NCBI GenBank assembly: GCA_964567695.1
Contig: CAZMNQ010000003.1
Span: forward strand, 1-37,776
Direction: 5' to 3'
Length of the DNA stretch: 37,776 nt
DNA from: an uncultured Bdellovibrionales bacterium
GTDB lineage: Bacteria; Patescibacteriota; Minisyncoccia; Moranbacterales; UBA2206
The notes under the pieces are model-generated. The model made no database searches. It had not been told where the DNA came from and saw only the letters and a program-made list of their open reading frames with translations. Shown one piece after another: positions 1,500-37,494 of the stretch (position 1 is the first letter of the stretch; the number at the start of each line of letters is the position of its first letter). The position numbers and the translations under genes were made by a program.

Positions 1500-4124
1500 A
1501 TGCGAGAAATTTCCAAACAATTTGATTTCAAAGAGAGGGAAGGGAAAATTTACGCGCTTTGGGAGAAGAGTGGGTTTTTTAATCCGGATAATATAAAATC
1601 TTCTAACCTGCCTGCCGGTAGGCAAGGAAAATATTGCAATGTTTTGCCGCCACCGAATGCCAATGGCGAATTGCATATCGGCCACGCCAGCGGTTATGCG
1701 GTGATGGATATTTTCGGCCGTTTCGAACGGATGGGTGGCAAAAAAGTTTTGCTTTTGCCAGGCAAAGATCATGCCGGCATCCAGACGCAAGTTGTTTTTG
1801 AGCGAAAAATAAAAGAAGAGCAAGGGATAATTCGCCAAGAAATGGGCCGGGGAAAATTTTACGCGGCTTGTTATGATTTTTGCATGGATCGCTCGAACTA
1901 TATGCGCTCGCAGGAAAAGAAAATCGGTATCAGCGCGGATTGGTCGCGGGAAAAATTTACACTGGATCCGGACGGATTGAAAATCGCGCTGGAGACTTTT
2001 GTAAAAATGTATAAAGATGGTTTGGTATATAAGGGTAATCGGATTATCAATTGGTGTTCGCGTTGCGCGACAGCTTTGAGTGATGTTGAGGTGGAGCACA
2101 AAGAAAGAGAGGGAAAATTATATTATATCAAATATCCAATCAAAGATTCCAAGGAATTCATTGTGGTGGCGACAACTCGTCCGGAAACAATGTTGGGAGA
2201 CTCTGCTGTGGCAGTTAATCCAAAAGACAAGAGATTCTTGGGTTTTATCGGCCAGAACTTGATTTTGCCATTGCAAAACAGGGAAATTCCCGTGATTGCC
2301 GATCGGCGAATTGATATGAAATTTGGAACCGGTGCGGTGAAGATTACGCCGGCGCATGATCCATTGGACTGGCAAATTGGCAAGGATCATAAATTGGAAG
2401 AAATTTTTGTCATTGATGAAAAAGCTAAAATTACGGAAGCCGGCGGTGAATATGTCGGTCTGGATGTTTTGGAGGCCAGAGAAAAAATTGTAGCCGATTT
2501 GCAAGGGCTGGGATTTTTGGAAAAAGAAGAATCTTTGACTAATGCTGTTTCTGTTTGTGAAAGATGTAAGACTATAATTGAGCCGTTGATTTCAAACCAA
2601 TGGTTTGTGTCGGTGGACTCGGAAAAATATTCCTTTAAGAAAAAAACTTTAGAGATGATCAAGTCCGGCAAGGTTGAGATTTATCCGGAAAATTTCAAAA
2701 AAATTCTCATCCATTGGTTAAATAATTTGCAGGATTGGTGTATTTCACGACAAATATGGTGGGGACCGCAGTTTCCAGTGTGGTATCGTGGCGAAGAGAT
2801 TTATGTCGGACTGGAAAAACCCAAAGGCAAGGATTCCGACTCCGCCAAGGCTACGACGGGCAAGTGGATTCAGGACGAAAATACTTTGGACACTTGGTTT
2901 TCTTCAAGTCAGTGGCCATATACAGCACTGGGTTATCCCAACGGAAAAGACTGTAAAAACTTTTATCCAACCGACGCTATGATTACGGGTCGTGATTTGT
3001 TGTTCTTTTGGGCAGCAAGAATGTTGATGATGGGTGGTTATCGTACCGGGAAAGTTCCTTTCAAAAATCTATATTTTACTGGCTTAATTTTGGACAAGGA
3101 TGGGCATAAATTTTCCAAGTCGCGAGGCAATGGCATTGACCCGCTAGAAATCATTGAAAAATATGGCGCGGATGCACTGCGTTTGAGCTTAGTGATGGAT
3201 ATTGCGCCGGGACAAGACGCGCGGCTCTATGAGGAAAAAATTGAAAGCTTCCGCAATTTTGTGACCAAGCTGTGGAATATTTTCCGCTATTGCAAGCAAT
3301 CGGATGAAAATTTTGCTTTGGTGGAAAAAATAAGCAAAAAAGATTTGAAAACTTTGTCAGACAGATGGATTGTTTCTGAATTGGAAGAGGTGACAAAAAA
3401 AGTTACACAATGCATGAAAGACAAGCAGATTTCTTTGGCGCAGGACGCATTGCGCAAATTTACTTGGGATAGTTTCGCTGATTGGTTCGTTGAAATAAAT
3501 AAACTGGAAAAGAATACTAAGGTTTTGGGCTATGTTCTGGACAAAATTTTGAAACTTTGGCATCCGTTCACGCCTTTTGTGACAGAGGAAATTTATCAAA
3601 TTTTGAATAAGAGTGAAGATATTTTGATGATGGCTAAATGGCCGAAAAGTGAAAAGAAATTTATTGATGCCAAGGCGCAGGCTAATTTTGCCGATCTGCA
3701 AGAATTGATTGCAAAAATTCGAAATATTCGGGCGAGTTATCACATTAATCCAGCGGAGTTGATAGAGGCGTATGGCAAGCTTAAGACCGAAAAAGAAATC
3801 GTGGAAAAACTCGGTCGAGTTAAAATTGAAACTAAGATTGCCAAAGAGAAAATGACCCAAATTTCTACTCGCAAGAGATCATTGCAACTGAATATCTCCA
3901 AATCGATAGATGTGGAAAAAGAAATTATTGCTTCAGCCAAAGAAATTCAAAATTTGACACAACTTGTGGCCAAAAACGAAGGTATGTTGAAAAACAAACA
4001 GTTTGTGGCTGGAGCGCCCAAGGAAATTATTGAGGCAACAAAGACAAGATTAGAAGAATATAAGGAAAAATTGGAGGTGCAAGCAGCGCTTAAGAATAGC
4101 CTAGAACAGCTTAAAAGAACTTAA
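1500..4124 (+). CDS. valS: Valyl-tRNA synthetase
   Basis: 874 aa. HIGH motif PPPNANGELHIGHA, KMSKS-type KFSKSRGN, DTWFSSSQWP and a C-terminal coiled coil. Carries a 21-nt palindromic insert near the N-terminus (1607-1627). Confidence 0.95.
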   Translation: MREISKQFDFKEREGKIYALWEKSGFFNPDNIKSSNLPAGRQGKYCNVLPPPNANGELHIGHASGYAVMDIFGRFERMGGKKVLLLPGKDHAGIQTQVVFERKIKEEQGIIRQEMGRGKFYAACYDFCMDRSNYMRSQEKKIGISADWSREKFTLDPDGLKIALETFVKMYKDGLVYKGNRIINWCSRCATALSDVEVEHKEREGKLYYIKYPIKDSKEFIVVATTRPETMLGDSAVAVNPKDKRFLGFIGQNLILPLQNREIPVIADRRIDMKFGTGAVKITPAHDPLDWQIGKDHKLEEIFVIDEKAKITEAGGEYVGLDVLEAREKIVADLQGLGFLEKEESLTNAVSVCERCKTIIEPLISNQWFVSVDSEKYSFKKKTLEMIKSGKVEIYPENFKKILIHWLNNLQDWCISRQIWWGPQFPVWYRGEEIYVGLEKPKGKDSDSAKATTGKWIQDENTLDTWFSSSQWPYTALGYPNGKDCKNFYPTDAMITGRDLLFFWAARMLMMGGYRTGKVPFKNLYFTGLILDKDGHKFSKSRGNGIDPLEIIEKYGADALRLSLVMDIAPGQDARLYEEKIESFRNFVTKLWNIFRYCKQSDENFALVEKISKKDLKTLSDRWIVSELEEVTKKVTQCMKDKQISLAQDALRKFTWDSFADWFVEINKLEKNTKVLGYVLDKILKLWHPFTPFVTEEIYQILNKSEDILMMAKWPKSEKKFIDAKAQANFADLQELIAKIRNIRASYHINPAELIEAYGKLKTEKEIVEKLGRVKIETKIAKEKMTQISTRKRSLQLNISKSIDVEKEIIASAKEIQNLTQLVAKNEGMLKNKQFVAGAPKEIIEATKTRLEEYKEKLEVQAALKNSLEQLKRT
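1607..1627. repeat. Family P1 palindromic core, degenerate copy, in frame inside valS
   Basis: CCTGCCTGCCGGTAGGCAAGG differs at 2 positions from the P1 consensus CCTGCCTGCCGGCAGGCAGG. It encodes LPAGRQG in the variable segment just before the HIGH motif. Confidence 0.7.
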
Positions 4125-4153
4125 CTGTATTGTTGGGCATTGGAAAATACCTG

Positions 4154-4195: not shown

Positions 4196-5476
4196 ATGTC
4201 TAAGATAAAAAAGATTTTTGCCAGGGAGATTTTGGATTCACGGGGTAATCCGACAGTGGAAGTGGAAGTTGAATTGGAGTCGGGAATTAAAGCTGTGGCA
4301 GCGGTGCCGTCAGGCGCTTCGACTGGAATTTTTGAGGCTTTGGAATTGCGAGATGGCGATAAGAAAAGATTTAGTGGGTTGGGAGTTTTGCAAGCCGTGG
4401 AGAATGTGAATGAAAAAATCCAAAAAGTTGTGGTTGGTATGGAAGTGGAAGGTCAAATTGAAATTGATCAAAAAATGCTGGAATTGGATGGAACGGAAAA
4501 TAAAACTAATTTGGGAGCCAACGCAATTTTAGGTGTCTCACTGGCTGTTTGCCGCGCCGCGTCTGTTGAGGCTGGCATACCGTTGTATAAATATATTTCT
4601 AAGGCCTACAAACTACCTGCCTGCCGGACAGGCAGGAAAACCACGGGCTTTAAAATGCCCATTCCCATGTTTAATATCATCAATGGCGGCAAGCACAGTG
4701 ATTCAGGACTTTCAATTCAGGAATATAAGTTGGTACCCAATGGCATTAAATCGTTCAAGGAGCAATTCCGTGCTGGCAGTGAAATTTTTCATAAATTAAA
4801 AGATATCTTGGCTTCTGAGGGACAAAGCGTGGCTGTGGGTGATGAAGGTGGTTTTGCGCCTCGCCTGGAAAGCAACTCCAAACCCTTGGAACTGATTAAT
4901 CGTGCTATAGAAGAAGCCGGTTATAAAAAAGGAAAGGAAGTCAGTACGGCGATAGATGCGGCGGCTTCATCTTTTTTTGACGAAAAAGAAGGACAATATA
5001 TTTTCAAACCGGAAAGCAACGGCATCACTCGTGAAATGTTGGTGAATATTTATAGCGAATGGATAAATAAATATAATGTAATGTCAGTTGAGGACGGTTT
5101 GAATGAGCAAGATTGGGAAGGCTGGCGCGCGATGGAAGAAAAAATTGGAAAGACGGTGATGACAATTGGCGATGATCTCTTGGTGACCAATGTAAAAAGA
5201 TTGGAAATAGCGATCAAAGAAAAAGCGTGCAATTCTGTTTTGATCAAGGTTAATCAGATCGGCACCCTAACAGAAACGATGGCGTGCATAAAATTGGCCA
5301 AGAAAAATAAGATGCGAATCGTCATTTCGCATCGTTCAGGCGAAACCACTGATGACTTCATAGCCGACCTAGCCGTGGGCGTGCAAGCCGACTACATAAA
5401 ATCCGGCTCCCTTTCCCGAGGCGAGCGAATTTGTAAATATAATCGCTTGTTGAGGATTGAGGAAGAAATAAAATAG
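4196..5476 (+). CDS. eno: Enolase (phosphopyruvate hydratase)
   Basis: MSKIKKIFAREILDSRGNPTVEVEV..., SGASTG, NIINGGKH, IKVNQIGTLTET and SHRSGETTD are textbook enolase motifs. Carries a 21-nt palindromic insert (4616-4636). Confidence 0.95.
   Translation: MSKIKKIFAREILDSRGNPTVEVEVELESGIKAVAAVPSGASTGIFEALELRDGDKKRFSGLGVLQAVENVNEKIQKVVVGMEVEGQIEIDQKMLELDGTENKTNLGANAILGVSLAVCRAASVEAGIPLYKYISKAYKLPACRTGRKTTGFKMPIPMFNIINGGKHSDSGLSIQEYKLVPNGIKSFKEQFRAGSEIFHKLKDILASEGQSVAVGDEGGFAPRLESNSKPLELINRAIEEAGYKKGKEVSTAIDAAASSFFDEKEGQYIFKPESNGITREMLVNIYSEWINKYNVMSVEDGLNEQDWEGWRAMEEKIGKTVMTIGDDLLVTNVKRLEIAIKEKACNSVLIKVNQIGTLTETMACIKLAKKNKMRIVISHRSGETTDDFIADLAVGVQADYIKSGSLSRGERICKYNRLLRIEEEIK
4616..4636. repeat. 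Family P1 palindromic core in frame inside eno
   Basis: CCTGCCTG-CCGGA-CAGGCAGG. It encodes PACRTGR, within the LPACRTGRK segment, in the loop preceding PIPMFNIINGGKH. Confidence 0.75.
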
Positions 5477-26494: not shown

Positions 26495-27208
26495 GTGAAA
26501 TTTGATATAATTACAATTTTTCCTGAGATATTTGACTCCTATTTTTCCGAGTCGATTATTAAGCGCGCGCAAGGCGCTGGTTTTGTAGATATAAATATTA
26601 TTAATTTGCGTGACTACACGACAGATAGTCATAAGACTGTTGACGACACGCCCTATGGCGGAGGAGCGGGTATGGTTATGAAAGTTGAACCGATATATCG
26701 AGCTGTTGGCTCGATAATTTCCAATTTCCTCCGCCGCGGCGGACCAATTTCCAATGAATTTTCAAATTCAAATTCCAAAATTTCTAAACCAGATAATGTA
26801 TGTATTATTTTATTTTCAGCTAAGGGGAAGCGCTATACACAGCAAGACGCAGTTAGATTATCTAAATATGAAAATATTATAATGATTTGCGGTCGCTATG
26901 AAGGCGTGGATGAAAGAGTGATTGAACACATCGCGGATGAAGAAATTTCCATCGGAGATTTTGTTTTAACGGGTGGTGAAATTCCGGCGATGGTGGTTGT
27001 GGATAGCATCACGCGTCTCATTCCGGGTGTTCTTGGCAATAGTGAATCAATTGTGGCAGAGTCCCACAGTGAAGAACAATATTTGGAATATCCGCAATAC
27101 ACAAAACCGGAGTATTTTTCAGGTTGGAAAGTCCCTGAAGTGCTTTTGAGCGGCAATCATAAAAAAATTTCCGTTTGGCGCGAAGATAGTTCTAAATCAG
27201 TGAAATAA
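26495..27208 (+). CDS. trmD: tRNA (guanine37-N1)-methyltransferase
   Basis: GTG start. [53 protein letters not shown]. Carries an in-frame repeat element at 26715-26784. Confidence 0.9.
26715..26784 (+). repeat. Family P2 element (core TCCGCCGCGGCGGA at 26730-26743) in frame inside trmD
   Basis: AATTTCCAATTTCC-TCCGCCGCGGCGGA-CCAATTTCCAATGAATTTTCAAATTCAAATTCCAAAATTTC. The 9-mer CCAATTTCC directly flanks the core on both sides. Encodes [23 protein letters not shown]. Confidence 0.8.
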
Positions 27209-27225: not shown

Positions 27226-28332
27226 ATGACTAAAGGTGACGCAAAAAAAGCTGATGCAATTTTATTATATTCAGTTTTTGGATTGATTATTTTTGGCCTA
27301 ATCATGATTGCCAGTGCTGGAGTCGGCTATTCCTTAACGCATTTCGGAGATGAATATTATTTTCTCAAGCGGCAACTATTATTTGGTGTTTTACAAGGCT
27401 TGCTCATCATGAGTATTGTAAAAAACATTGATTATAGGATTTGGAGAAAATTGTCCTTTCCATTTTTTGTCGCAAGTATAATTTTTCTGATCCTGGTATT
27501 TATTCCGGGGATTGGATCAAAAATTTATGGAGCAAATCGCTGGATTCAACTTGGGTTCTTTTCTTTTCAGCCGGCTGAAATGCTGAAAATATCTTTAATT
27601 TTATATTTAGCGGCTTGGCTTGAAAGCAGGCAGGAACGAATAAAAGACTTCTATGAGGGACTTGTGCCGTTCCTGATGATTGTTGCTCTGGTTAGTTTTC
27701 TTTTAGTGAAACAGCCGGATATCGGAACGCTGGGCATTATAATATTTATTGCCATGTCAATTTTTTTTGTTTCCGGTGCAAAAATTTCCCACATACTTTT
27801 AATGGGCGGGGCGGGTGTTATGTTGCTTTTTGCCTTGATTAAATTAGAATCATACCGAATGGACAGGTTTTTAGTTTTTTTGCATCCTGAGCTTGATCCG
27901 CGCGGAATTGGCTACCAGATTAACCAAGCGCTTCTGGCAATCGGCTCGGGCGGAATTTTTGGGGTTGGATTAGGCCATAGTATGCAAAAATTCAATTATT
28001 TGCCGGAACCGGCGGGCGATTCAATTTTTGCTATAATCGGGGAGGAATTGGGAATTTTCGGAGAATTTATTTTGATTGTTTTGTTTGTTATATTGGCGAT
28101 GCGCGGATTGCGTATTGCAAAACATGCTCCGGATATTTTTGGAAGATTGACGGCTGTCGGGATTGTTTCCTGGATAATGTTTCAAGCCTTCATAAATATC
28201 GCAGCTATTTCCGGTTTAATTCCATTAACTGGAGTTCCATTGCCATTTATCAGTTATGGAGGAACATCGGTCGTGTTTTTATTGACTGGCATTGGAATTT
28301 TATTGAATATTTCTAAACAAGCTAAAATTTAA
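27226..28332 (+). CDS. ftsW: SEDS-family peptidoglycan polymerase (FtsW by dcw context)
   Basis: 10-TM profile. RWIQLGFFSFQPAEMLK, PDIGT, GLGHSMQKFNYLPEPAGDSIFA, PLPFISYGGTS. Confidence 0.8.
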   Translation: MTKGDAKKADAILLYSVFGLIIFGLIMIASAGVGYSLTHFGDEYYFLKRQLLFGVLQGLLIMSIVKNIDYRIWRKLSFPFFVASIIFLILVFIPGIGSKIYGANRWIQLGFFSFQPAEMLKISLILYLAAWLESRQERIKDFYEGLVPFLMIVALVSFLLVKQPDIGTLGIIIFIAMSIFFVSGAKISHILLMGGAGVMLLFALIKLESYRMDRFLVFLHPELDPRGIGYQINQALLAIGSGGIFGVGLGHSMQKFNYLPEPAGDSIFAIIGEELGIFGEFILIVLFVILAMRGLRIAKHAPDIFGRLTAVGIVSWIMFQAFINIAAISGLIPLTGVPLPFISYGGTSVVFLLTGIGILLNISKQAKI

Positions 28333-28392
28333 TTTACAATTATCAATGATCAATTTTCAATAAAGTTACAATAATCAATGTTCAATTTTTAT

Positions 28393-28469
28393 CTTGAAAA
28401 TTTAGTAATTGAAGATTGATTGTAAATTCCTGCCTGCCGGCAGGCAGGGAAAATTGTAAATTGAAAATT
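28393..28469 (+). repeat. Family P1 full-length element (core 28429-28448), intergenic between ftsW and murG
   Basis: CTTGAAAATTTAGTAATTGAAGATTGATTGTAAATT-CCTGCCTGCCGGCAGGCAGG-GAAAATTGTAAATTGAAAATT. Perfect 20-nt palindrome. The arms are homologous to the copy inside miaB. Confidence 0.8.
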
Positions 28470-28480
28470 AATATCAAATT

Positions 28481-29581
28481 ATGAAAATTATATTAACGGG
28501 TGGTGGAACGGGCGGTCATTTGATGCCACTTATAGCAGTAGCTAGAAAAATTAAGGAGAAAGTTCCAGCGGTCGAATTTATTTTTATTGGTCCAAAAGGG
28601 AAAATGGAAGAGGCATTTATGGGCGCCGAAAACATCTCTTCCAAATGGATATCTGTTGGCAAGATGCGCAGATATTTTTCCTTGCTTAATTTCGTAGATT
28701 TTTTTAAAGTTATTTTTGGGGTTATGCAGTCGCTTGTAATCCTGCTGATTGAAATGCCCGACGCAATCTTTTCTAAAGGCGGCTATGCTTCATTTCCAGT
28801 TGTTTTTGTGGGCTGGCTCTATCGCATTCCGATTTTGATCCATGAATCAGACGCGACGCCCGGTTTGGCCAATAGAATATTGAAAAAATTTGTTGATCGC
28901 GTAGCAGTGGCTTATGTGGAAGCTGAAAAGGAATTTCCGGCTGCGCAAGTTGTGGTGACTGGCAATCCGTTGCGAGCCGATATTAATCTGGGTGATGCCA
29001 AAAAAGCCAGAGAAATGTTTTCTCTGGCTGAATCAAAAAAAGTAATTTTTGTTTATGGCGGGTCTCAGGGGGCGAGAGCTATTAATAATAAAATCTTGGA
29101 TATTTTGCCGGAACTTTTGCAAAAATATCAGGTTATACATCAGACTGGAGAAAGCAATTTTAATGAGGTTTGCCATCGCGCCGGAGAAATGGGTATCAAG
29201 GCGGGCCGGGAAGGTTATATCCCACTGTCTTTTATCGGGGAAGAATTAAAGGATATTTTGGCGGTTTCCGATTTAGTTATTTCGCGGGCGGGCGCCAATT
29301 CAATTTCCGAGATTGCGGCCAATGGAAAGCCATCAATCCTGATTCCCTTGCAAACAGCCGCCAATGACCATCAGCGGATGAATGCCTATGTTTTAGCGAA
29401 AATTGGCGGATGCGTCGTGCTGGAAGAAAGTAATTTGGGAGAGAATTTGTTCATGAGCAGAATTTCGGAAATTATGGAGAGCCCGGAGTTACAAAAGAAG
29501 TTATCCGAAAATATAAAAACATTTTATCACGCTGACGCGACTGAAAAAATTGCTGTGGGAATTTTGGATATGATAAAATAG
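28481..29581 (+). CDS. murG: UDP-N-acetylglucosamine--N-acetylmuramyl-(pentapeptide) pyrophosphoryl-undecaprenol GlcNAc transferase
   Basis: MKIILTGGGTGGHLMPLIAVA, GGSQGA, ISRAGANSISEIAANGKPSILIP, DHQ..NA. Confidence 0.9.
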   Translation: MKIILTGGGTGGHLMPLIAVARKIKEKVPAVEFIFIGPKGKMEEAFMGAENISSKWISVGKMRRYFSLLNFVDFFKVIFGVMQSLVILLIEMPDAIFSKGGYASFPVVFVGWLYRIPILIHESDATPGLANRILKKFVDRVAVAYVEAEKEFPAAQVVVTGNPLRADINLGDAKKAREMFSLAESKKVIFVYGGSQGARAINNKILDILPELLQKYQVIHQTGESNFNEVCHRAGEMGIKAGREGYIPLSFIGEELKDILAVSDLVISRAGANSISEIAANGKPSILIPLQTAANDHQRMNAYVLAKIGGCVVLEESNLGENLFMSRISEIMESPELQKKLSENIKTFYHADATEKIAVGILDMIK

Positions 29582-29583
29582 TA

Positions 29584-29645
29584 ATTTAATTTCAAAAACC
29601 AAATTTCAAATTTCAAATCAACTTTAAAAAACAAATTTCAAACTA
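29584..29645 (+). repeat. AT-rich AATTTCA heptamer tract without a GC core (murG-murC intergenic)
   Basis: ATTTAATTTCAAAAACCAAATTTCAAATTTCAAATCAAC...CAAATTTCAAAC carries the same heptamer as the P2 flanks. Confidence 0.5.
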
Positions 29646-29652
29646 ACTATAA

Positions 29653-31086
29653 TTGAAAAATATGGATTTATCAAAAATTAAAAATGTCTATGTGATTGGC
29701 ATTAAGGGCTCGGGTATTGTGGGTATTGTGGAAATTCTCACAAAAATGGGCATATTTGTGAGCGGATCGGATGTACCGGAGAAGTTTTTTACTGATGAAA
29801 TTTTGCAAAAATTAGATATAAAATATTTTGAGGAATTCTCAGAAAAAAATATTCCGGAAAATGTTGATTTAATTTTATATTCAACCGCCTATAACGCGGA
29901 GAATAATATTGAATTTAATGCGGCTAAAGAAAGAGATGTGTTGATGATGAGTTATCCGGAAATTTTAGGGGAACTTTTTAATCAAAAATATGGCATTGCG
30001 GTTTGTGGAACACATGGCAAAACTACAACTTCTGCCATGATGGCCTTTGTTTTGCAGGCAGTGGGCGTTTCTCCGACCGCGGTCATTGGTAGCCGCGTCA
30101 AACAGTGGGGTGGCAATGCTCTAGTTGGCACAGGAGAATATTTTGTTATTGAAGCGGATGAATATCAAAATAAATTAAGACTATATGAGCCAAAAGGAGT
30201 AATTCTTACAAGTGTGGATTGGGACCATCCAGACACATATCCAACTCTTAATGAATATAAAAAAGCTTTTACAGATTTTGTGGCTAAAATTCCCAAAACT
30301 GGTTTTCTAGTCGTTTGGGGAGATAGTATTGATACAAATGAAATTGCTAAGTATTGTACTGCTAAAGTAATTAAATATGGATTTGGAGAGGATAATGATG
30401 TTGTAATTTCAAATTTCAAATTTCATCCGCCGCGGCGGACAAATCAAAATCAAATGTCAAATGATCAAAATGATGAATTAAAATATCAGAGTTTTGATGT
30501 TATGTATAAAAAAGAGAATCTGGGTAGTTTTCAAATTAAACTTATTGGAAAACATAATGTTTTGAATGCTGGAGCGGTAATTGCAGTGTGTCACAAGTTG
30601 AATTTGGATATGGAAAAGGTGCGTGAAGCATTGAAGGATTTTTCCGGAACTTCAAGGCGCTTTGAAATGATTGGGCAGAGGAATGGCGCTATTTTAATTG
30701 ATGATTATGGCCATCATCCGGAAGAAATCAAAGCTACGCTGAAAGCGACTAGAGAAATTTATCCGGACAAAAATATTATTGCAGTCTTTCATCCGCATTC
30801 CTATTCACGAACCGAAGCCTTGTTACAAGATTTTGCGCAAAGTTTTGATGACGCGGACCGTGTGATTGTGCTGGACATCTATGGTAGCGCCCGGGAAAAC
30901 ACAGGCAATGTTTCTTCTGAGGATCTAGTAAAATTGATTAACAAATATAATCGCGGCAAAGCTGAATATATTGCAACCATTGATGGAGCCGTAGAATCCT
31001 TGCAAGATAAAATCAGCGACACGGATATTGTTCTGGCGATTGGCGCCGGCAATGTTTTTGAGGTGGTGAAAAAATTAAAATTTTAA
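29653..31086 (+). CDS. murC: UDP-N-acetylmuramate--L-alanine ligase
   Basis: GIKGSGI..., VSGSD, VCGTHGKTTTSAM, EADEYQ, GKHNVLNA, IDDYGHHPEEI. The ORF track starts at TTG 29653; ATG at 29662 is an equally plausible start. In-frame repeat element at 30404-30470. Confidence 0.9.
   Translation: MKNMDLSKIKNVYVIGIKGSGIVGIVEILTKMGIFVSGSDVPEKFFTDEILQKLDIKYFEEFSEKNIPENVDLILYSTAYNAENNIEFNAAKERDVLMMSYPEILGELFNQKYGIAVCGTHGKTTTSAMMAFVLQAVGVSPTAVIGSRVKQWGGNALVGTGEYFVIEADEYQNKLRLYEPKGVILTSVDWDHPDTYPTLNEYKKAFTDFVAKIPKTGFLVVWGDSIDTNEIAKYCTAKVIKYGFGEDNDVVISNFKFHPPRRTNQNQMSNDQNDELKYQSFDVMYKKENLGSFQIKLIGKHNVLNAGAVIAVCHKLNLDMEKVREALKDFSGTSRRFEMIGQRNGAILIDDYGHHPEEIKATLKATREIYPDKNIIAVFHPHSYSRTEALLQDFAQSFDDADRVIVLDIYGSARENTGNVSSEDLVKLINKYNRGKAEYIATIDGAVESLQDKISDTDIVLAIGAGNVFEVVKKLKF
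30404..30470 (+). repeat. Family P2 element (core 30426-30439) in frame inside murC
   Basis: TAATTTCAAATTTCAAATTTCA-TCCGCCGCGGCGGA-CAAATCAAAATCAAATGTCAAATGATCAAAA. Encodes SNFKFHPPRRTNQNQMSNDQ, a different reading frame from the trmD and miaA copies. Confidence 0.8.
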
Positions 31087-31090
31087 ATTT

Positions 31091-32023
31091 ATGTTAAATA
31101 TTCAAAAAAATATAAATATAGCTCCCTACACAACTTTCAAAATCGGCGGACCAGCGAAATATTTTGCAGAGGTTAATTCGGAGGAAGATATTTTTGAGGC
31201 GCTGAGATATGCCAAGGATAATGGCCTGCAATTTTTTATATTGGGTGGCGGTAGCAATATTTTGGTGAATGACAAAGGCTTTGACGGGTTGATTATAAAA
31301 ATGAAATTAGATGATCTCAAGATGGATGTGTCTCGGGGCATAATCGAAATCGGGGCAGGGGTGATTCTGGCGAAAATAGTGAAAAATTCCACTGCCGAGG
31401 GATTGACGGGCCTAGAATGGGCTTCCGGCATCCCTGGGACGGTTGGCGGAGCATTGAGGGGCAATGCGAGAGCTTTTGGACGCAATATCGGTATGTCAGT
31501 CGAAACTATTGAGGCACTAGATATTACGACCCTAGAAAGAACCACTTATAATAATTCCGAGTGTGAATTTGCCTATTGGGGTAGTATGTTTAAAAAAAAT
31601 CCCAACCTGATTATTTTGTCCGCTAAGATTAAGCTGGAAAAAGGTGACGCGGAAAAAAGTCAACAAGAGGCCAGGAATATTATAGTCAAAAGAATGGCTA
31701 TACATCCGACAGGCAGCAGCGCAGGTTCATTTTTTCTAAATCCAGTGGTGTTTGATGAAAAATTGCGGGAGAGATTTGAAAAGGATTCCGGAACAGCCTG
31801 TCGAGACAACAAAATTCCTGCTGGCTGGCTAATAGACGAAGTTGGACTGCGCGGTAAAAAAATAGGCGGAATTCAAGTGAGCGAAAAACATGCGAACTTT
31901 GTAATAAATATTGGGGGCGGAACAGCCGAGGAGGTTGTGATGCTGACAAGCTTTGTTAAACAGCAAGTGCGTGATAAACTAGGGATTGAGTTGCAAGAAG
32001 AAATTCAATTTGTAGGGTTCTGA
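31091..32023 (+). CDS. murB: UDP-N-acetylenolpyruvoylglucosamine reductase
   Basis: YTTFKIGGPAKYF, ILGGGSNILV, GIPGTVGGA, GSFFLNP, AGWLID..GLRG...G...VS.KHANF. Confidence 0.9.
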   Translation: MLNIQKNINIAPYTTFKIGGPAKYFAEVNSEEDIFEALRYAKDNGLQFFILGGGSNILVNDKGFDGLIIKMKLDDLKMDVSRGIIEIGAGVILAKIVKNSTAEGLTGLEWASGIPGTVGGALRGNARAFGRNIGMSVETIEALDITTLERTTYNNSECEFAYWGSMFKKNPNLIILSAKIKLEKGDAEKSQQEARNIIVKRMAIHPTGSSAGSFFLNPVVFDEKLRERFEKDSGTACRDNKIPAGWLIDEVGLRGKKIGGIQVSEKHANFVINIGGGTAEEVVMLTSFVKQQVRDKLGIELQEEIQFVGF

Positions 32024-32182
32024 GAGCCTGTTCATAATCTCCGTATTCTGCTGCGAAATTGAAATTCCGGCTGCAAATTGTTCAAAATTCGTCGAAATAT
32101 CCAGATATTCCTCCTCATTTTTCACAATTTTCGCTCGAAATTTCAATCTCTCGCGACGAAAGAGAGATTATGAGCAGGCTCT
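32023..32182 (+). repeat. 160-nt MITE-like or structured-RNA element with 19-nt terminal inverted repeats
   Basis: AGAGCCTGTTCATAATCTC (32023-32041) and GAGATTATGAGCAGGCTCT (32164-32182) pair at 18 of 19 Watson-Crick positions, plus one T-G (plus-strand G-U). It starts at the last base of the murB TGA stop. Internal sub-hairpins are present. Confidence 0.65.
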
Positions 32183-32212
32183 TAATTTGTTAATTAATAA
32201 TTTTAAAAATAT

Positions 32213-34957: not shown

Positions 34958-35949
34958 TTTTTTATAAAAACTGAAACTTCTTTCTCCATATCCTTGTATT
35001 TTTTCAACCACTTTATGCGATGGTCTTTTTGAAACCAGGTCATTTGCCGTTTAGCATAGTCTTTTTCGGCTAAATAGACTCGTTCGTATAATTCTTCAAG
35101 AGTTATTTTTTCTTGCAGATATTCCGGTATCCAAAAATAGCCCAGTCCGAAGCTTTGAATTTTTTGAAAACTTAAGCCGGATTTTTTCAGTTTTTGTACC
35201 TCAGAAATCATGCCGGCCTGCCAGCGCGTATCGAGGCGTTTTTTGATTTTAGCGTGCAGTTTTTCTTTGGGAACGGAAATGCCGATTTGGAGAAACTCGT
35301 AACTCGTAACTTGTAATCCGTAACTCATGTCGGGAACTTTACCTAAAGTTTTGCAAATTTCAATGGCGCGAATGAGGCGCACTTTGTTTTTGGCATCGAT
35401 GTTTTCAGCGCGTCTAGGATCTAGTTTTTTTAATTCATGAATTAATTCAGTAATTTCTTTTTGCTCAAGTTTCTTGCGTAATTTCCAATCCGGCTTGACT
35501 TCTGGATAGGTTATATTATCCACAGCAGCTTTTATCCAAAAGCCGGTACCGCCACACAAGATGGGCAACTTTCCGCGTCTCAGAATGTCTTTAATAATTT
35601 TGTCTGCTTTCTTTTTAAATTGTGCTGCGCTGAAATTGGTTTTAGGACTGACAATGTCCAGCATATGATGCACGACGCCTTCGGAAATAAAAGGTTTTAT
35701 TTTTTTAAATTTAGTATTTTGAATTTGATTTGAAATTTGTCCGCCGCGGCGGATGAAATTTGAAATTTTATCTTGTGTCACTTTGCCCGTACCAACATCC
35801 ATGCCACGATAAATCTGGCGTGAATCAACCGAAACAACTTCGCCATCGAATTTCTGGGCAAGTTTAATCGCCACCGCTGATTTTCCAGCCGATGTAGGAC
35901 CTAATATCACGATAATTTTATTCAGTGGTAATTTATTGTATTTTGTCAT
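34954..35949 (-). CDS. miaA: tRNA dimethylallyltransferase
   Basis: ILGPTSAGKSAVAIKLA P-loop, SVDSRQIYRGMDVGTGK, HHMLDI, ILCGGTGFW, RLIRAIEI. Contains an in-frame repeat element at 35707-35769 and a heptamer microsatellite at 35296-35326. Confidence 0.9.
   Translation of the reverse strand: MTKYNKLPLNKIIVILGPTSAGKSAVAIKLAQKFDGEVVSVDSRQIYRGMDVGTGKVTQDKISNFIRRGGQISNQIQNTKFKKIKPFISEGVVHHMLDIVSPKTNFSAAQFKKKADKIIKDILRRGKLPILCGGTGFWIKAAVDNITYPEVKPDWKLRKKLEQKEITELIHELKKLDPRRAENIDAKNKVRLIRAIEICKTLGKVPDMSYGLQVTSYEFLQIGISVPKEKLHAKIKKRLDTRWQAGMISEVQKLKKSGLSFQKIQSFGLGYFWIPEYLQEKITLEELYERVYLAEKDYAKRQMTWFQKDHRIKWLKKYKDMEKEVSVFIKN
35296..35326. repeat. Heptamer microsatellite inside miaA
   Basis: CTCGTAA CTCGTAA CTTGTAA TCCGTAA CTC on the plus strand. 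Encodes YGLQVTSYEF on the coding (minus) strand. Confidence 0.6.
35707..35769 (-). repeat. Family P2 element (core 35740-35753) in frame inside miaA
   Basis: Coding strand reads AAAATTTCAAATTTCA-TCCGCCGCGGCGGA-CAAATTTCAAATCAAATTCAAAATACT. The 9-mer CAAATTTCA flanks the core on both sides. Encodes KISNFIRRGGQISNQIQNT. Confidence 0.8.
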
Positions 35950-36042: not shown

Positions 36043-37494
36043 TTAAACGATTTCTCCTTCCAAATTCCAAATGCTAACTTTAGTAATTTTAACTTTTATA
36101 ATCTTGCCAATCAGAGATCCCTCGACAAGTTCGGGATGACAATCGTTACTGATTGTCATTTTGACATTTTTTCCGGTGCGGGTTTTGCCGAAATAAATAT
36201 GGTGCTTTCCTAGAGCTAAGCTCTTGGAATCCAAGAGCTTAGCTCTAGGAGAACTTTCCTTTTCGATCAGGATTTCGACAGTCGTGTTGAGGAATTTTTT
36301 GCTATTTTTCAGCGCGGTCTTTTTCAGGATTTCATTTAAAAATTGTTCGCGACGGGCTTTTTCGGTTTTGGAAACTGAGTCTTTCATATTCCAAGCCGGT
36401 GTGCCGGGGCGGGGGGAAAATTGGCCAAAGAAAACCATGTCGTAACCGACTTTTTCCATGATTTCCGCAGAGTCTAAAAATTGTTTTTTGGTTTCACTTG
36501 GGAAGCCGACAATGATATCGGAAGTGATGACGGCTGGCACGCCCGATTTATTTTTTTTGAAAGCGGCTTGAATTTTTTTAACTAAAATCAAATATTCTTG
36601 CGCGGTGTATTTGCGATTCATTTTTCTGAGGACTTCATCATTGCCAGCTTGGATGGGCAGATGAAAAGCTTCGCAAACTTTTTTGCATTTCGTTACTGTT
36701 TCAATCATTTCTGGCGACACATCTTTCGGGTGATTGCTGACAAAGCGAATCCAAAATTTTCCCGGGATGGCGTTGACTTTTTTTACGAGCTTAGAAAAAT
36801 TTATTTTGCCATCCGAGTATGAATTAACATTTTGTCCAAGCAAAGTTATTTCTTTGTAGCCTTTTTTCACTAGATTTTTTACTTCATAAATTATTTCTTC
36901 CGCCGGTCTGGAAACTTCCCGTCCACGAGCATAGGGCACGACGCAGTAGGCGCAGAAATTGTTGCAGCCGGTCATAATCGGCACAAAAGCTTGATATGCA
37001 TTTGTAAGTTTTGGTTTAATGGATAGATAAGAGATATTTTCTTTGCTTAGTTCGATATTTTTTTGTGCCGAAATTTTCAATTTACAATTTACAACCTTGC
37101 CTGCCGGCAGGCAGGTTTTCAATGAATTTTCAATGATAAAATTTTCAAACAGCTCAAAATTGTTAATAGGGGAAAATAAATCAACTTTATTTTTTAGTCT
37201 TCTTTGCACATCTTTGCGGTTGGCGAGACAACCAGTTAAAACAATCTTGATTTTTGGATTAGCCTTTTTGAGATTATGAACTTGTCCATAGACCCGATCT
37301 TCGGCCATTTGGCGCACCCCACAGGTGTTGAAAATGACCAAACCTGCCTTCGCTAAGGCTTCGGCAGGCAAGTCAGCATTTTCGTTCCTAGTAAGTGGTT
37401 CTAGTCCTTGTGATTCCAGAAAACTGGCAATCCGCTCACTGTCTGAATGGTTCATCTGGCAACCAAAAGTTTTGATAGAGTATGTTTTATTCAT
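36043..37494 (-). CDS. miaB: tRNA-i6A37 methylthiotransferase (radical SAM MTTase)
   Basis: TFGCQMNHSDSE and FNTCGVR (N-terminal cluster), GCNNFCAYCVVPYARGRE (radical SAM CxxxCxxC), C-terminal TRAM domain. Contains at least three palindromic in-frame inserts. Confidence 0.9.
   Translation of the reverse strand: MNKTYSIKTFGCQMNHSDSERIASFLESQGLEPLTRNENADLPAEALAKAGLVIFNTCGVRQMAEDRVYGQVHNLKKANPKIKIVLTGCLANRKDVQRRLKNKVDLFSPINNFELFENFIIENSLKTCLPAGKVVNCKLKISAQKNIELSKENISYLSIKPKLTNAYQAFVPIMTGCNNFCAYCVVPYARGREVSRPAEEIIYEVKNLVKKGYKEITLLGQNVNSYSDGKINFSKLVKKVNAIPGKFWIRFVSNHPKDVSPEMIETVTKCKKVCEAFHLPIQAGNDEVLRKMNRKYTAQEYLILVKKIQAAFKKNKSGVPAVITSDIIVGFPSETKKQFLDSAEIMEKVGYDMVFFGQFSPRPGTPAWNMKDSVSKTEKARREQFLNEILKKTALKNSKKFLNTTVEILIEKESSPRAKLLDSKSLALGKHHIYFGKTRTGKNVKMTISNDCHPELVEGSLIGKIIKVKITKVSIWNLEGEIV
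36116..36159 (-). repeat. Hairpin-containing in-frame insert in the miaB TRAM domain
   Basis: ATGACAATC-GTTACT-GATTGTCAT hairpin at 36136-36159, next to CCCTCGACAAGTTCGGG. Encodes TISNDCHPELVEGS between conserved V.M and LIGKIIKVKI. Confidence 0.55.
36208..36250. repeat. Near-perfect 41-43-nt palindrome in frame inside miaB
   Basis: CCTAGAGCTAAGCTCTTGGA-A-TCCAAGAGCTTAGCTCTAGG: 20 of 20 pairs around a single central base, and each arm is itself palindromic (AGAGCTAAGCTCT). Encodes SPRAKLLDSKSLALG. Confidence 0.75.
37072..37149 (-). repeat. Family P1 full-length element (core 37095-37115), 78 nt, in frame inside miaB
   Basis: Minus strand reads TTTGAAAATTTTATCATTGAAAATTCATTGAAAA-CCTGCCTGCCGGCAAGG-TTGTAAATTGTAAATTGAAAATT. 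It shares ATTGTAAATTGAAAATT and the left arm with the intergenic copy at 28393-28469. Encodes FENFIIENSLKTCLPAGKVVNCKLKI. Confidence 0.8.

Follow-up and report, generated by a model that had tools for sequence, protein, structure and literature searches.

A 20/21-Nucleotide Palindrome Shared by Distant Bacterial Phyla and Phages as a Probable Ultra-Small Mobile Element

Introduction

The closest described counterparts of the element reported here are the small dispersed repeats (SDRs) of the Nostocaceae, with the repetitive extragenic palindromes (REPs) and the Rickettsia palindromic elements (RPEs) as other near relatives. SDRs, reportedly described by Elhai et al. in 2008 (Genome Res 18:1484), are said to be hairpin-forming units of 21-27 nt, and RPEs, attributed to Ogata et al. 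in 2000, are reportedly about 100-150 nt long and located in-frame in protein genes. MITEs (miniature inverted-repeat transposable elements) are characterized by terminal inverted repeats and a target-site duplication, and derive from longer insertion sequences (IS) with the same ends. Transposition of the IS200/IS605 elements is hairpin-dependent and does not duplicate the target; it requires a fixed 4-5-nt target on one side, and the orientation of the elements is tied to the direction of replication. To our knowledge, mobile DNA is thought to need transposase-binding ends of at least tens of bases, and the smallest DNA parasites that we know of (MITEs, REPINs and RPEs) usually measure 40-150 nt and belong to one lineage each. 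Here we describe a perfect 20-nt palindrome, CCTGCCTGCCGGCAGGCAGG, hereafter the P1 core, located between ftsW and murG in a 37,776-nt stretch of DNA (contig CAZMNQ010000003.1, assembly GCA_964567695.1) that we refer to in full as the window. The host, judged by the names of homologs, is a Moranbacteria-like bacterium of the Parcubacteria within the candidate phyla radiation (CPR). An earlier note, made from the sequence alone, had presented the palindrome as one of four members of a repeat family.

SDR5 is described as inserting between the third and fourth base of the HIP1 palindrome (PMC4390886), SDRs are reported in the Nostocaceae only (PMC5861425) and are cited again in PMC3116915, and the P6b region of the Nostoc trnL intron is described as showing indels of extra elements within heptamer repeats (PMC3488679). 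REPs are dispersed, non-autonomous, GC-rich palindromes of 20-40 nt that are occasionally intragenic (PMC3733652), and RPEs are mentioned in PMC1779305. Mobile GC clusters are found in yeast mitochondrial DNA (PMC4478555, PMC8811140), and TAACTGA direct repeats occur in Beggiatoaceae, Cyanobacteria and Bacteroidetes (MacGregor, PMC4679880). Our search of the literature by sequence, by encoded peptides and by topic did not return a description of the P1 core or its peptides.

Results

The palindrome occupies positions 28429-28448, as the earlier note had stated, and has no strand assignment. It lies in a 148-nt spacer between the open reading frames (ORFs) 27226-28332 and 28481-29581, which encode FtsW (Pfam FTSW_RODA_SPOVE, E 6e-108) and MurG (Pfam Glyco_transf_28, N- and C-terminal domains), respectively. 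The other three copies are inside protein genes, also as proposed, and they are found at the loci originally named, but each consists of 21 nt rather than 20. The valS copy, CCTGCCTGCCGGTAGGCAAGG (1607-1627, plus strand), replaces a K with NLPAGRQG; the eno copy, CCTGCCTGCCGGaCAGGCAGG / CCTGCCTGCCGGACAGGCAGG (4616-4636, plus strand), adds PACRTGR; and the miaB copy (37095-37115, minus strand), which reads CCTTGCCTGCCGGCAGGCAGG on the plus strand and CCTGCCTGCCGGCAGGCAAGG in the sense direction, replaces an I with TCLPAGKV. The identities of ValS, Eno and MiaB are backed by their translations together with PDB or homolog matches. A search of the window for the 20-nt core with at most three mismatches returned three matches while 0.00 were expected from 100 dinucleotide shuffles, a frequency far above chance; the repeat family is real. 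The eno copy escapes this search because an extra central base acts as a 1-nt insertion. The core is of low complexity, (CCTG)2CC followed by GG(CAGG)2, so that it starts with CCTG and ends with CAGG, and it is free of stop codons in all six frames.

Sites devoid of the element were found by comparison with orthologs. Comparison loci are designated here by L numbers and proteins by P numbers. On its sense strand, miaB of the window reads cattgaaaa|CCTGCCTGCCGGCAGGCAAGG|ttgtaaattgtaaattgaaaatt, and the ortholog in L163 (GCA_041643255.1) reads cattgaaaattgtaaattgtaaattgaaaatt, which is the window sequence minus exactly 21 nt with identical flanks. The difference sits between ttgaaaa and ttgtaaa, and there is no target duplication. 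The Eno ortholog of L175 (P0122), with 95% protein and 87% DNA identity to that of the window, is encoded at this place by tat aaa cta aaa act acg, as compared to tac aaa cta CCT GCC TGC CGG ACA GGC AGG aaa acc acg in the window. Again, the two differ by exactly 21 nt, located between aaacta and aaaac, with no duplication. At the protein level, KSSKKYCN stands in the pair of ValS proteins most closely related to that of the window (84% and 83% identity), where the window has KSS[NLPAGRQG]KYCN, the product expected of a 21-mer inserted inside an AAA codon. A further pair comes from a phage. In the viral locus L151 (position 2284) the core lies in the variable loop of a tRNA-Met, which ARAGORN predicts as a 92-nt molecule whose long variable arm is the core, and as a canonical 72-nt molecule after removal of the core. 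Target-site duplication, a criterion for MITEs, was absent from the three empty and filled comparisons (miaB, eno and tRNA-Met), and these same filled sites led us to reject the idea that the heptamer arrays described below are accumulated 7-bp target-site duplications. We also rejected the core as the abutted terminal repeats, or excision footprint, of a larger transposon: no element longer than the core and bounded by half-sites was present in the 1.18 Mb searched, and true solo half-sites are rare.

Independent insertions in the same genes were found in other genomes at the same or neighboring positions. The miaB gene of L162 (MiaB P0017) carries CCTGCCTGCCGGTAGGCAAGG, identical to the 21-mer of the window's valS, one heptamer further along and within a (TTGGAAA)n array. 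In L177, the 21-mer CCTGCCTCGCCGGCAGGCAGG interrupts eno at the codon boundary used in the window, a site that is empty in many closer relatives, and the same 21-mer is present in L176 eno, within a (CAAAATT)n array of that loop. The miaB form of the window was found again in L013 and L107, the valS form in L019, and an eno-like form with a central A twice in the viral locus L137. Such recurrence of variants in unrelated hosts is the subfamily structure expected of copied elements.

The loops concerned harbor other inserts as well. Unrelated GC-rich inserts occupy the Eno loop (window residues ~138-150) in P0152, P0156, P0194, P0206, P0208 and P0240, and the ValS loop in P0246; these inserts of other lineages include PKADSPRAK, SAKGGSASGG and PEADQPWAD. 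The Eno and ValS loops are recurrent landing sites.

In the window, all three coding copies have 21 nt, i.e., seven codons, and the intergenic copy has 20. This split was examined at loci with a GC content below 45%, counting a copy as inside an ORF when the frame was open for at least 60 codons on both sides. The 20-nt form was in long ORFs in five of 66 cases (8%) and the 21-nt form in 35 of 83 (42%), while random positions gave 246 of 492 (50%). The difference between the two forms is highly significant (Fisher odds ratio 8.9, p 1.7e-6). The contrast was not significant over all loci at all GC contents because high-GC contigs yield spurious long ORFs. From this result we argue that the coding copies undergo translation and that selection filters them. 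Because stop codons are absent from all frames of the core, a 21-nt copy adds seven harmless residues to a surface loop. The frame-shifting 20-nt form persists almost only outside genes, and 21-nt copies persist in the essential genes valS, eno and miaB.

Additional copies outside the window, the absence of which the earlier note had named as evidence against the family, are abundant. The exact core, allowing three two-fold degenerate positions, is present in at least 120 stretches of one-genome-per-species contigs; about nine would be expected by chance at uniform composition, and fewer in hosts that mostly have a low GC content. The hosts include many classes of Patescibacteria, Bacteroidota (among them eight cultured strains), Ignavibacteriota, Omnitrophota, Planctomycetota, Nitrospirota, Chloroflexota, Desulfobacterota, Bdellovibrionota and gammaproteobacterial metagenome-assembled genomes (MAGs). 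No cyanobacterial host is among the 120 genome loci listed. The perfect 20-mer was also detected in 35 IMG/VR viral stretches, including one 29.5-kb contig with at least six copies, and two control palindromes, one with the same halves turned inside out and one matched in composition, had zero matches in the viral set. Both the 21-mer CCTGCCTGCCGGYAGGCAAGG and the valS 21-mer CCTGCCTGCCGGTAGGCAAGG occur in at least 120 metagenome stretches. Assembly artefacts, which had been considered as another way in which the family could fail, do not account for the copies. An identical intergenic copy was recovered in 10 more contigs, which come from independent assemblies (SPAdes, MEGAHIT, JGI and NCBI GCA_002772105.1), and an identical valS copy in four others.

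The arms next to the core had been viewed as part of a 77-78-nt repeat unit. Their homology is genuine: positions 28393-28469 match the inverted 37072-37149 over segments of 37 nt (84%) and 33 nt (82%), and the 17-mer ATTGTAAATTGAAAATT is present exactly in the intergenic and miaB arms. Nevertheless, the arms occur in orthologs that lack the core (L163 miaB and most Moranbacteria MiaB), and the arms-plus-core unit was discarded. The heptamer-encoded peptide FENFVIENSLKIENLKLKI exists without any core in most of 60 Moranbacteria MiaB proteins, for which reason the arms are older host sequence. The mobile unit is the 20/21-nt palindrome alone, and the valS and eno copies, previously described as core-only, are complete rather than degenerate. 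When the core is deleted from the intergenic copy, ATTGTAAATT meets GAAAATTGTAAATTGAAAATT to form an unbroken ATTGNAA heptamer array, and deletion of the core from miaB restores a perfect heptamer array. The phase of the core relative to the heptamer differs between these two copies.

The arms themselves are as follows. The left one (28393-28428, plus strand) is a degenerate tandem array of the ATTGNAA type, which belongs to the host and lies outside the mobile unit. The right one (28449-28469, plus strand) consists of three GAAAATT heptamers (Tandem Repeats Finder (TRF), period 7, 3.0 copies) and includes the 17-mer in common with miaB. Inverted arrays of the TCAATNN type fill positions 28330-28392 (plus strand); the left arm is predicted to pair with them, and together with the arms they turn the whole spacer into a compound hairpin. 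On the minus-strand gene miaB, the core is flanked at 37072-37094 by 3.3 AATTTAC heptamers (as read on the plus strand), which are pre-existing coding sequence for VNCKLKI, and at 37116-37149 by a heptamer-type array, also pre-existing, that encodes FENFIIENSLK. TRF identified about 10 arrays of 7 nt in the window, all belonging to the AATTTNA/TNAAATT unit family. One of the arrays, (AAATTTC)n in the murG-murC spacer (29588-29618), is one heptamer shorter in four of 11 versions (the window and 10 contigs).

The boundaries of the element are sharp. Palindromy stops at the 20-nt edge, with an extension of 0 in 78 copies, and the flanks of 116 perfect copies are not conserved (positions 1-12); a bias exists solely at the base immediately outside the core (A 9%, T 40%). 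For the oriented 21-mer, the left flank has AA at its end in 39% of the cases, and T is the initial base of the right flank in 60%. Landing tends to favor, loosely, A|T steps. A stronger association was found with tandem arrays. Junctions from which the core had been deleted were strongly periodic at 7-8 nt in 8.8% of copies versus 0.15% of controls, and a second set of junctions gave 23.8% versus 0.8%, with a period of 7 in 35 of 41; the core is thus enriched 30-60 times in 7-nt arrays. The heptamer sequences at the cores vary from locus to locus and cover all GC contents, and the core itself is identical. A larger hairpin formed by the flanks around the core was ruled out since the energy of flank-flank pairing equals that at random positions (p 0.86).

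The element also enters copies of itself and tRNA genes. Nesting of a core in another, usually after position 11, was observed in L030, L068, L074 and L082, and longer CCTGCCTGCCG repeats in L030, L068 and L074. In the viral contig IMGVR_UViG_3300025106_000007 (L160), the 21-nt variant CCATGCCTACCGGCAGGCAGG is repeated head to tail at least 11 times at positions 3915-4142, up to the contig end, and six dispersed variants are present in the preceding 2.4 kb, several of them at gene boundaries. The tRNA-Met of L151 has a counterpart in the viral locus L128 (position 8616), in which the T-arm is deleted next to the core, and in L158 (515), L024 (4041) and L059 (2127) the core directly follows 5′ tRNA fragments that end in the D-loop. 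Other combinations of palindromes were noticed: positions 132-200 of L026, a Saccharibacteria MAG, contain the core followed by gaaaattg-TCCGCCAGCTGGCGGA-ttaaattgaaaatt, in which the heptamer arm seen in the window is split by another palindrome, and L016 (3285-3350) has three different GC palindromes in succession.

The properties of the ftsW-murG copy did not point to a dedicated role. There is no T-run after the hairpin and a terminator scan was empty at the core, in agreement with the earlier opinion that it is not a canonical terminator; three of the copies in the window are intragenic, and no 3′-end bias was detected. Intergenic copies were distributed among tandem, convergent and divergent spacers at 69/17/14%, close to the background of 66/18/16%. 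With no U-tract and no bias in spacer type, a terminator or promoter role was dismissed, as was membership of a known RNA family, since Rfam contains no match to the core at gathering thresholds, and a cutoff of E<=1 brought up nothing but noise. The RNA of positions 28325-28480 has a predicted fold of -42.9 kcal/mol (z -6.96), and much of this strength is, in the model, due to the inverted heptamer arrays. Most likely, the intergenic copy has no dedicated function, and its hairpin may incidentally affect the ftsW-murG transcript.

Several other palindromic segments were observed in the window. A second family, TCCGCCGCGGCGGA, is found at 26730-26743 (trmD), 30426-30439 (murC) and 35740-35753 (miaA, minus strand). 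Its three copies are all in frame in housekeeping genes and flanked by AATTTCA-type heptamer arrays, and those in murC and miaA are alike in arms and core (84% over 51 nt). MiaA of the closest relative, L164, has no insert, and in L163 the same MiaA loop is occupied by another GC palindrome, ccctctcc..gggagaggg, which encodes PTLSLSGRGG. The miaB gene (36043-37494, minus strand) includes three more GC-rich cassettes, at about 37339-37374, 36208-36250 and 36115-36137, which encode ADLPAEALAKAG, SPRAKLLDSKSLALG (a 40-nt perfect DNA palindrome) and CHPELVEGS; they are absent from many orthologs, and in other lineages the same three sites hold different hairpin-encoded peptides. These MiaB cassettes suggest a wider vocabulary of inserted palindromes. 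Positions 32018-32188, between murB and an hpf-like gene, form an imperfect long hairpin of 165 nt with 79-nt arms (-58.3 kcal/mol, z -6.9) and no Rfam match. A gene for a four-helix-bundle protein ("23S rRNA intervening-sequence / Avd-like") lies within 8 kb of the core in the unrelated loci L042, L080, L131 and L153, which may be coincidence.

Discussion

The comparisons presented here indicate that the core family consists of 20/21-nt palindromes that appear to be mobile across phyla, and that the arms belong to heptamer arrays of the host. The palindrome between ftsW and murG is probably a copy of such an ultra-small, non-autonomous element. A fixed unit of 20/21 nt is inserted precisely, without target duplication and without carrying flanking sequence along. 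Insertion favors A|T steps, tandem 7-nt arrays, hairpin loops, including the center of the element itself, and tRNA loops. Movement would probably be catalyzed in trans by an enzyme that recognizes the folded hairpin on single-stranded DNA, by analogy with HUH/Y1 transposases acting on REPs or IS200/IS605 ends. One sequence would have spread between phyla, with phages as plausible carriers.

A number of observations weigh against mobility of the core. The intergenic copy is fixed in 11 of 11 contigs of the population, without presence/absence polymorphism, and no insertion polymorphism of the valS copy was found in its four other contigs; mobility is consequently deduced from between-species comparisons only. 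That a 20-mer is exactly the same in several phyla is not usual in REP-like systems, which are host-specific, and the enrichment in arrays and loops could in part reflect tolerance instead of targeting. The orientation of the asymmetric forms showed no significant bias with respect to the ORF strand (21/42) or to GC skew, and these results count because a strictly lagging-strand mechanism on single-stranded DNA might leave such a bias. No transposase or REP-associated tyrosine transposase (RAYT) was identified by Pfam among 30 ORFs of the window, and when the ORFs of 150 loci were compared all against all, no gene family recurred beside cores. A neighboring transposase as the mobilizer was discarded on these grounds.

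A broader and clearly more tentative version of the proposal is that of a pan-bacterial "nano-transposon", a 20-nt hairpin, CCTGCCTGCCGGCAGGCAGG, whose cut-and-paste or copying would be due to a DNA-processing activity that is widely distributed and that phages possibly carry. The substrates of this activity would be single-stranded hairpins and heptamer arrays, and the core would be one of a set of shared GC-rich palindromic cassettes by which essential proteins and tRNAs have their loops remodeled in CPR bacteria, Bacteroidota and other phyla. Further candidate cassettes would be TCCGCCGCGGCGGA, TCCGCCAGCTGGCGGA and those encoding HPELVEGS and PPKADQP.

The copies could also have arisen with no dedicated enzyme, if similar heptamer arrays exchanged sequence by homologous recombination, gene conversion or replication template switching, the palindrome being retained because heteroduplex hairpin loops escape mismatch repair. 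The strong enrichment of cores in 7-nt arrays, the AATTTNA/TNAAATT arrays scattered over the window, their proneness to slippage, as seen in the one-heptamer polymorphism of the murG-murC spacer, and the arms common to the murC and miaA copies of TCCGCCGCGGCGGA (84% over 51 nt) all agree with this pathway. However, we consider it unlikely: the eno, valS and tRNA-Met sites have neither an array nor homology to the flanks of other copies, the core is located at different heptamer phases in the intergenic and miaB copies, the flanks of the 116 copies are not conserved, and the arrays are wholly different between genomes while the core is identical. Somewhat less likely still is a functional hairpin, i.e., a signal for RNA stability, processing or termination, or a DNA structure, selected at each site, with the intergenic copy regulating ftsW-murG. 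Many REPs act in this manner (PMC3733652), the spacer as a whole has a strong fold (z -6.96), the population is fixed for the intergenic copy, and the phage copies of L160 cluster at gene boundaries. Nonetheless, three of four copies in the window are coding, there is no U-tract, spacer types equal the background, the bias in orientation relative to ORFs is absent, Rfam is empty, and the copies in tRNA loops and those nested in one another would be left unexplained.

Identity across phyla might instead be convergence, through repeated de novo origin by CCTG/CAGG slippage and fold-back synthesis or because the core is the binding site of a conserved protein. The low complexity of (CCTG)2CC and GG(CAGG)2 and the longer CCTGCCTGCCG repeats of L030, L068 and L074 are compatible with this possibility, which is nevertheless improbable given that the inside-out and composition-matched palindromes had 0 viral matches as opposed to 35, that empty sites have no CCTG seed, that the same 21-nt variants recur in unrelated hosts, and that isolated half-sites are rare. 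An assembly or sequencing artefact is hardly credible. In one SPAdes scaffold, L122, the valS copy coincides exactly with a 100-N gap, a fact that shows only that the hairpin assembles poorly; identical copies were recovered with different assemblers, from different samples and in cultured isolates, the coding copies are in frame, and the frame signature of the 20- and 21-nt forms is strong.

The behavior of the P1 core is that of a mobile DNA element, among the smallest seen. Mobility has three signatures in this bare palindrome of 20 nt, namely clean empty and filled sites, subfamilies in unrelated hosts and selection on the reading frame, and these come with an identical sequence in very distant phyla and phages. 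If correct, the proposal that the core is mobile implies an insertion activity, probably specific for single-stranded DNA hairpins, and offers a concrete way into the long-standing puzzle that tandem heptamer arrays pose. It would also explain odd peptides such as LPAGRQG, PACRQAG and PTGRQA as well as length variation of housekeeping proteins in uncultivated bacteria, segments that annotators and phylogeneticists should then treat as insertions and not as homologous residues. The presence of the element in several cultured Bacteroidota makes the question experimentally tractable.

Comparison with known systems places the core closest to the SDRs. Among the more distant cases, the GC clusters of yeast and the double-hairpin elements of fungal mitochondrial DNA are likewise short GC-rich palindromes that invade AT-rich genomes, including coding and RNA genes; they differ in being organellar, 30-60 nt long, in some cases associated with target duplications, and lineage-specific in sequence. 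The arms, but not the core, resemble the short tandemly repeated repetitive (STRR) sequences of cyanobacteria and the TAACTGA repeats, which are 7-nt tandem direct repeats, mostly intergenic and sporadic across phyla. The unit in the window is AATTTNA/TNAAATT, and its arrays are also intragenic, and there they serve as landing pads for the palindrome. Unlike MITEs, the core has no duplication at its sites, and no longer elements with half-site ends were found in 1.18 Mb. The likeness to IS200/IS605 is a mechanistic analogy only: duplication is also lacking at the core, its target shows only a loose A|T preference, and its orientation relative to GC skew is not significant.

With REPs and REPINs the core has in common that it is a short dispersed palindrome, with four copies in 37.8 kb here, and that both lack the logic of terminal inverted repeats and target duplication. 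REPs have a GTAG or CGTC tag, whereas the core is tagless, starting with CCTG and ending with CAGG, with unconserved flanks in 116 copies. In addition, most REPs lie downstream of genes, where the neighboring ORFs are unidirectional or convergent, and the core has no positional bias; REPs are species-specific and linked to a RAYT, while the core crosses phyla and no RAYT was found in the window or near the cores of 150 loci. RPEs share with the core the condition of selfish palindromic DNA located in frame in housekeeping genes and tolerated as an extra surface peptide, but they are 5-7 times longer, restricted to Rickettsia and unrelated in sequence, in contrast to a core of 21 nt in a Moranbacteria-like CPR host. 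To judge from the literature that cites the SDRs, these and the core are both hairpin repeats of about 21-27 nt that behave as mobile DNA, insert precisely, enter other repeats and are associated with degenerate heptanucleotide arrays. We know of no mobilizing enzyme for either of them. In this comparison, made by description, SDRs are reported in the Nostocaceae only, while many phyla and phage contigs have one and the same core, and its 21-nt forms are common inside essential protein genes.

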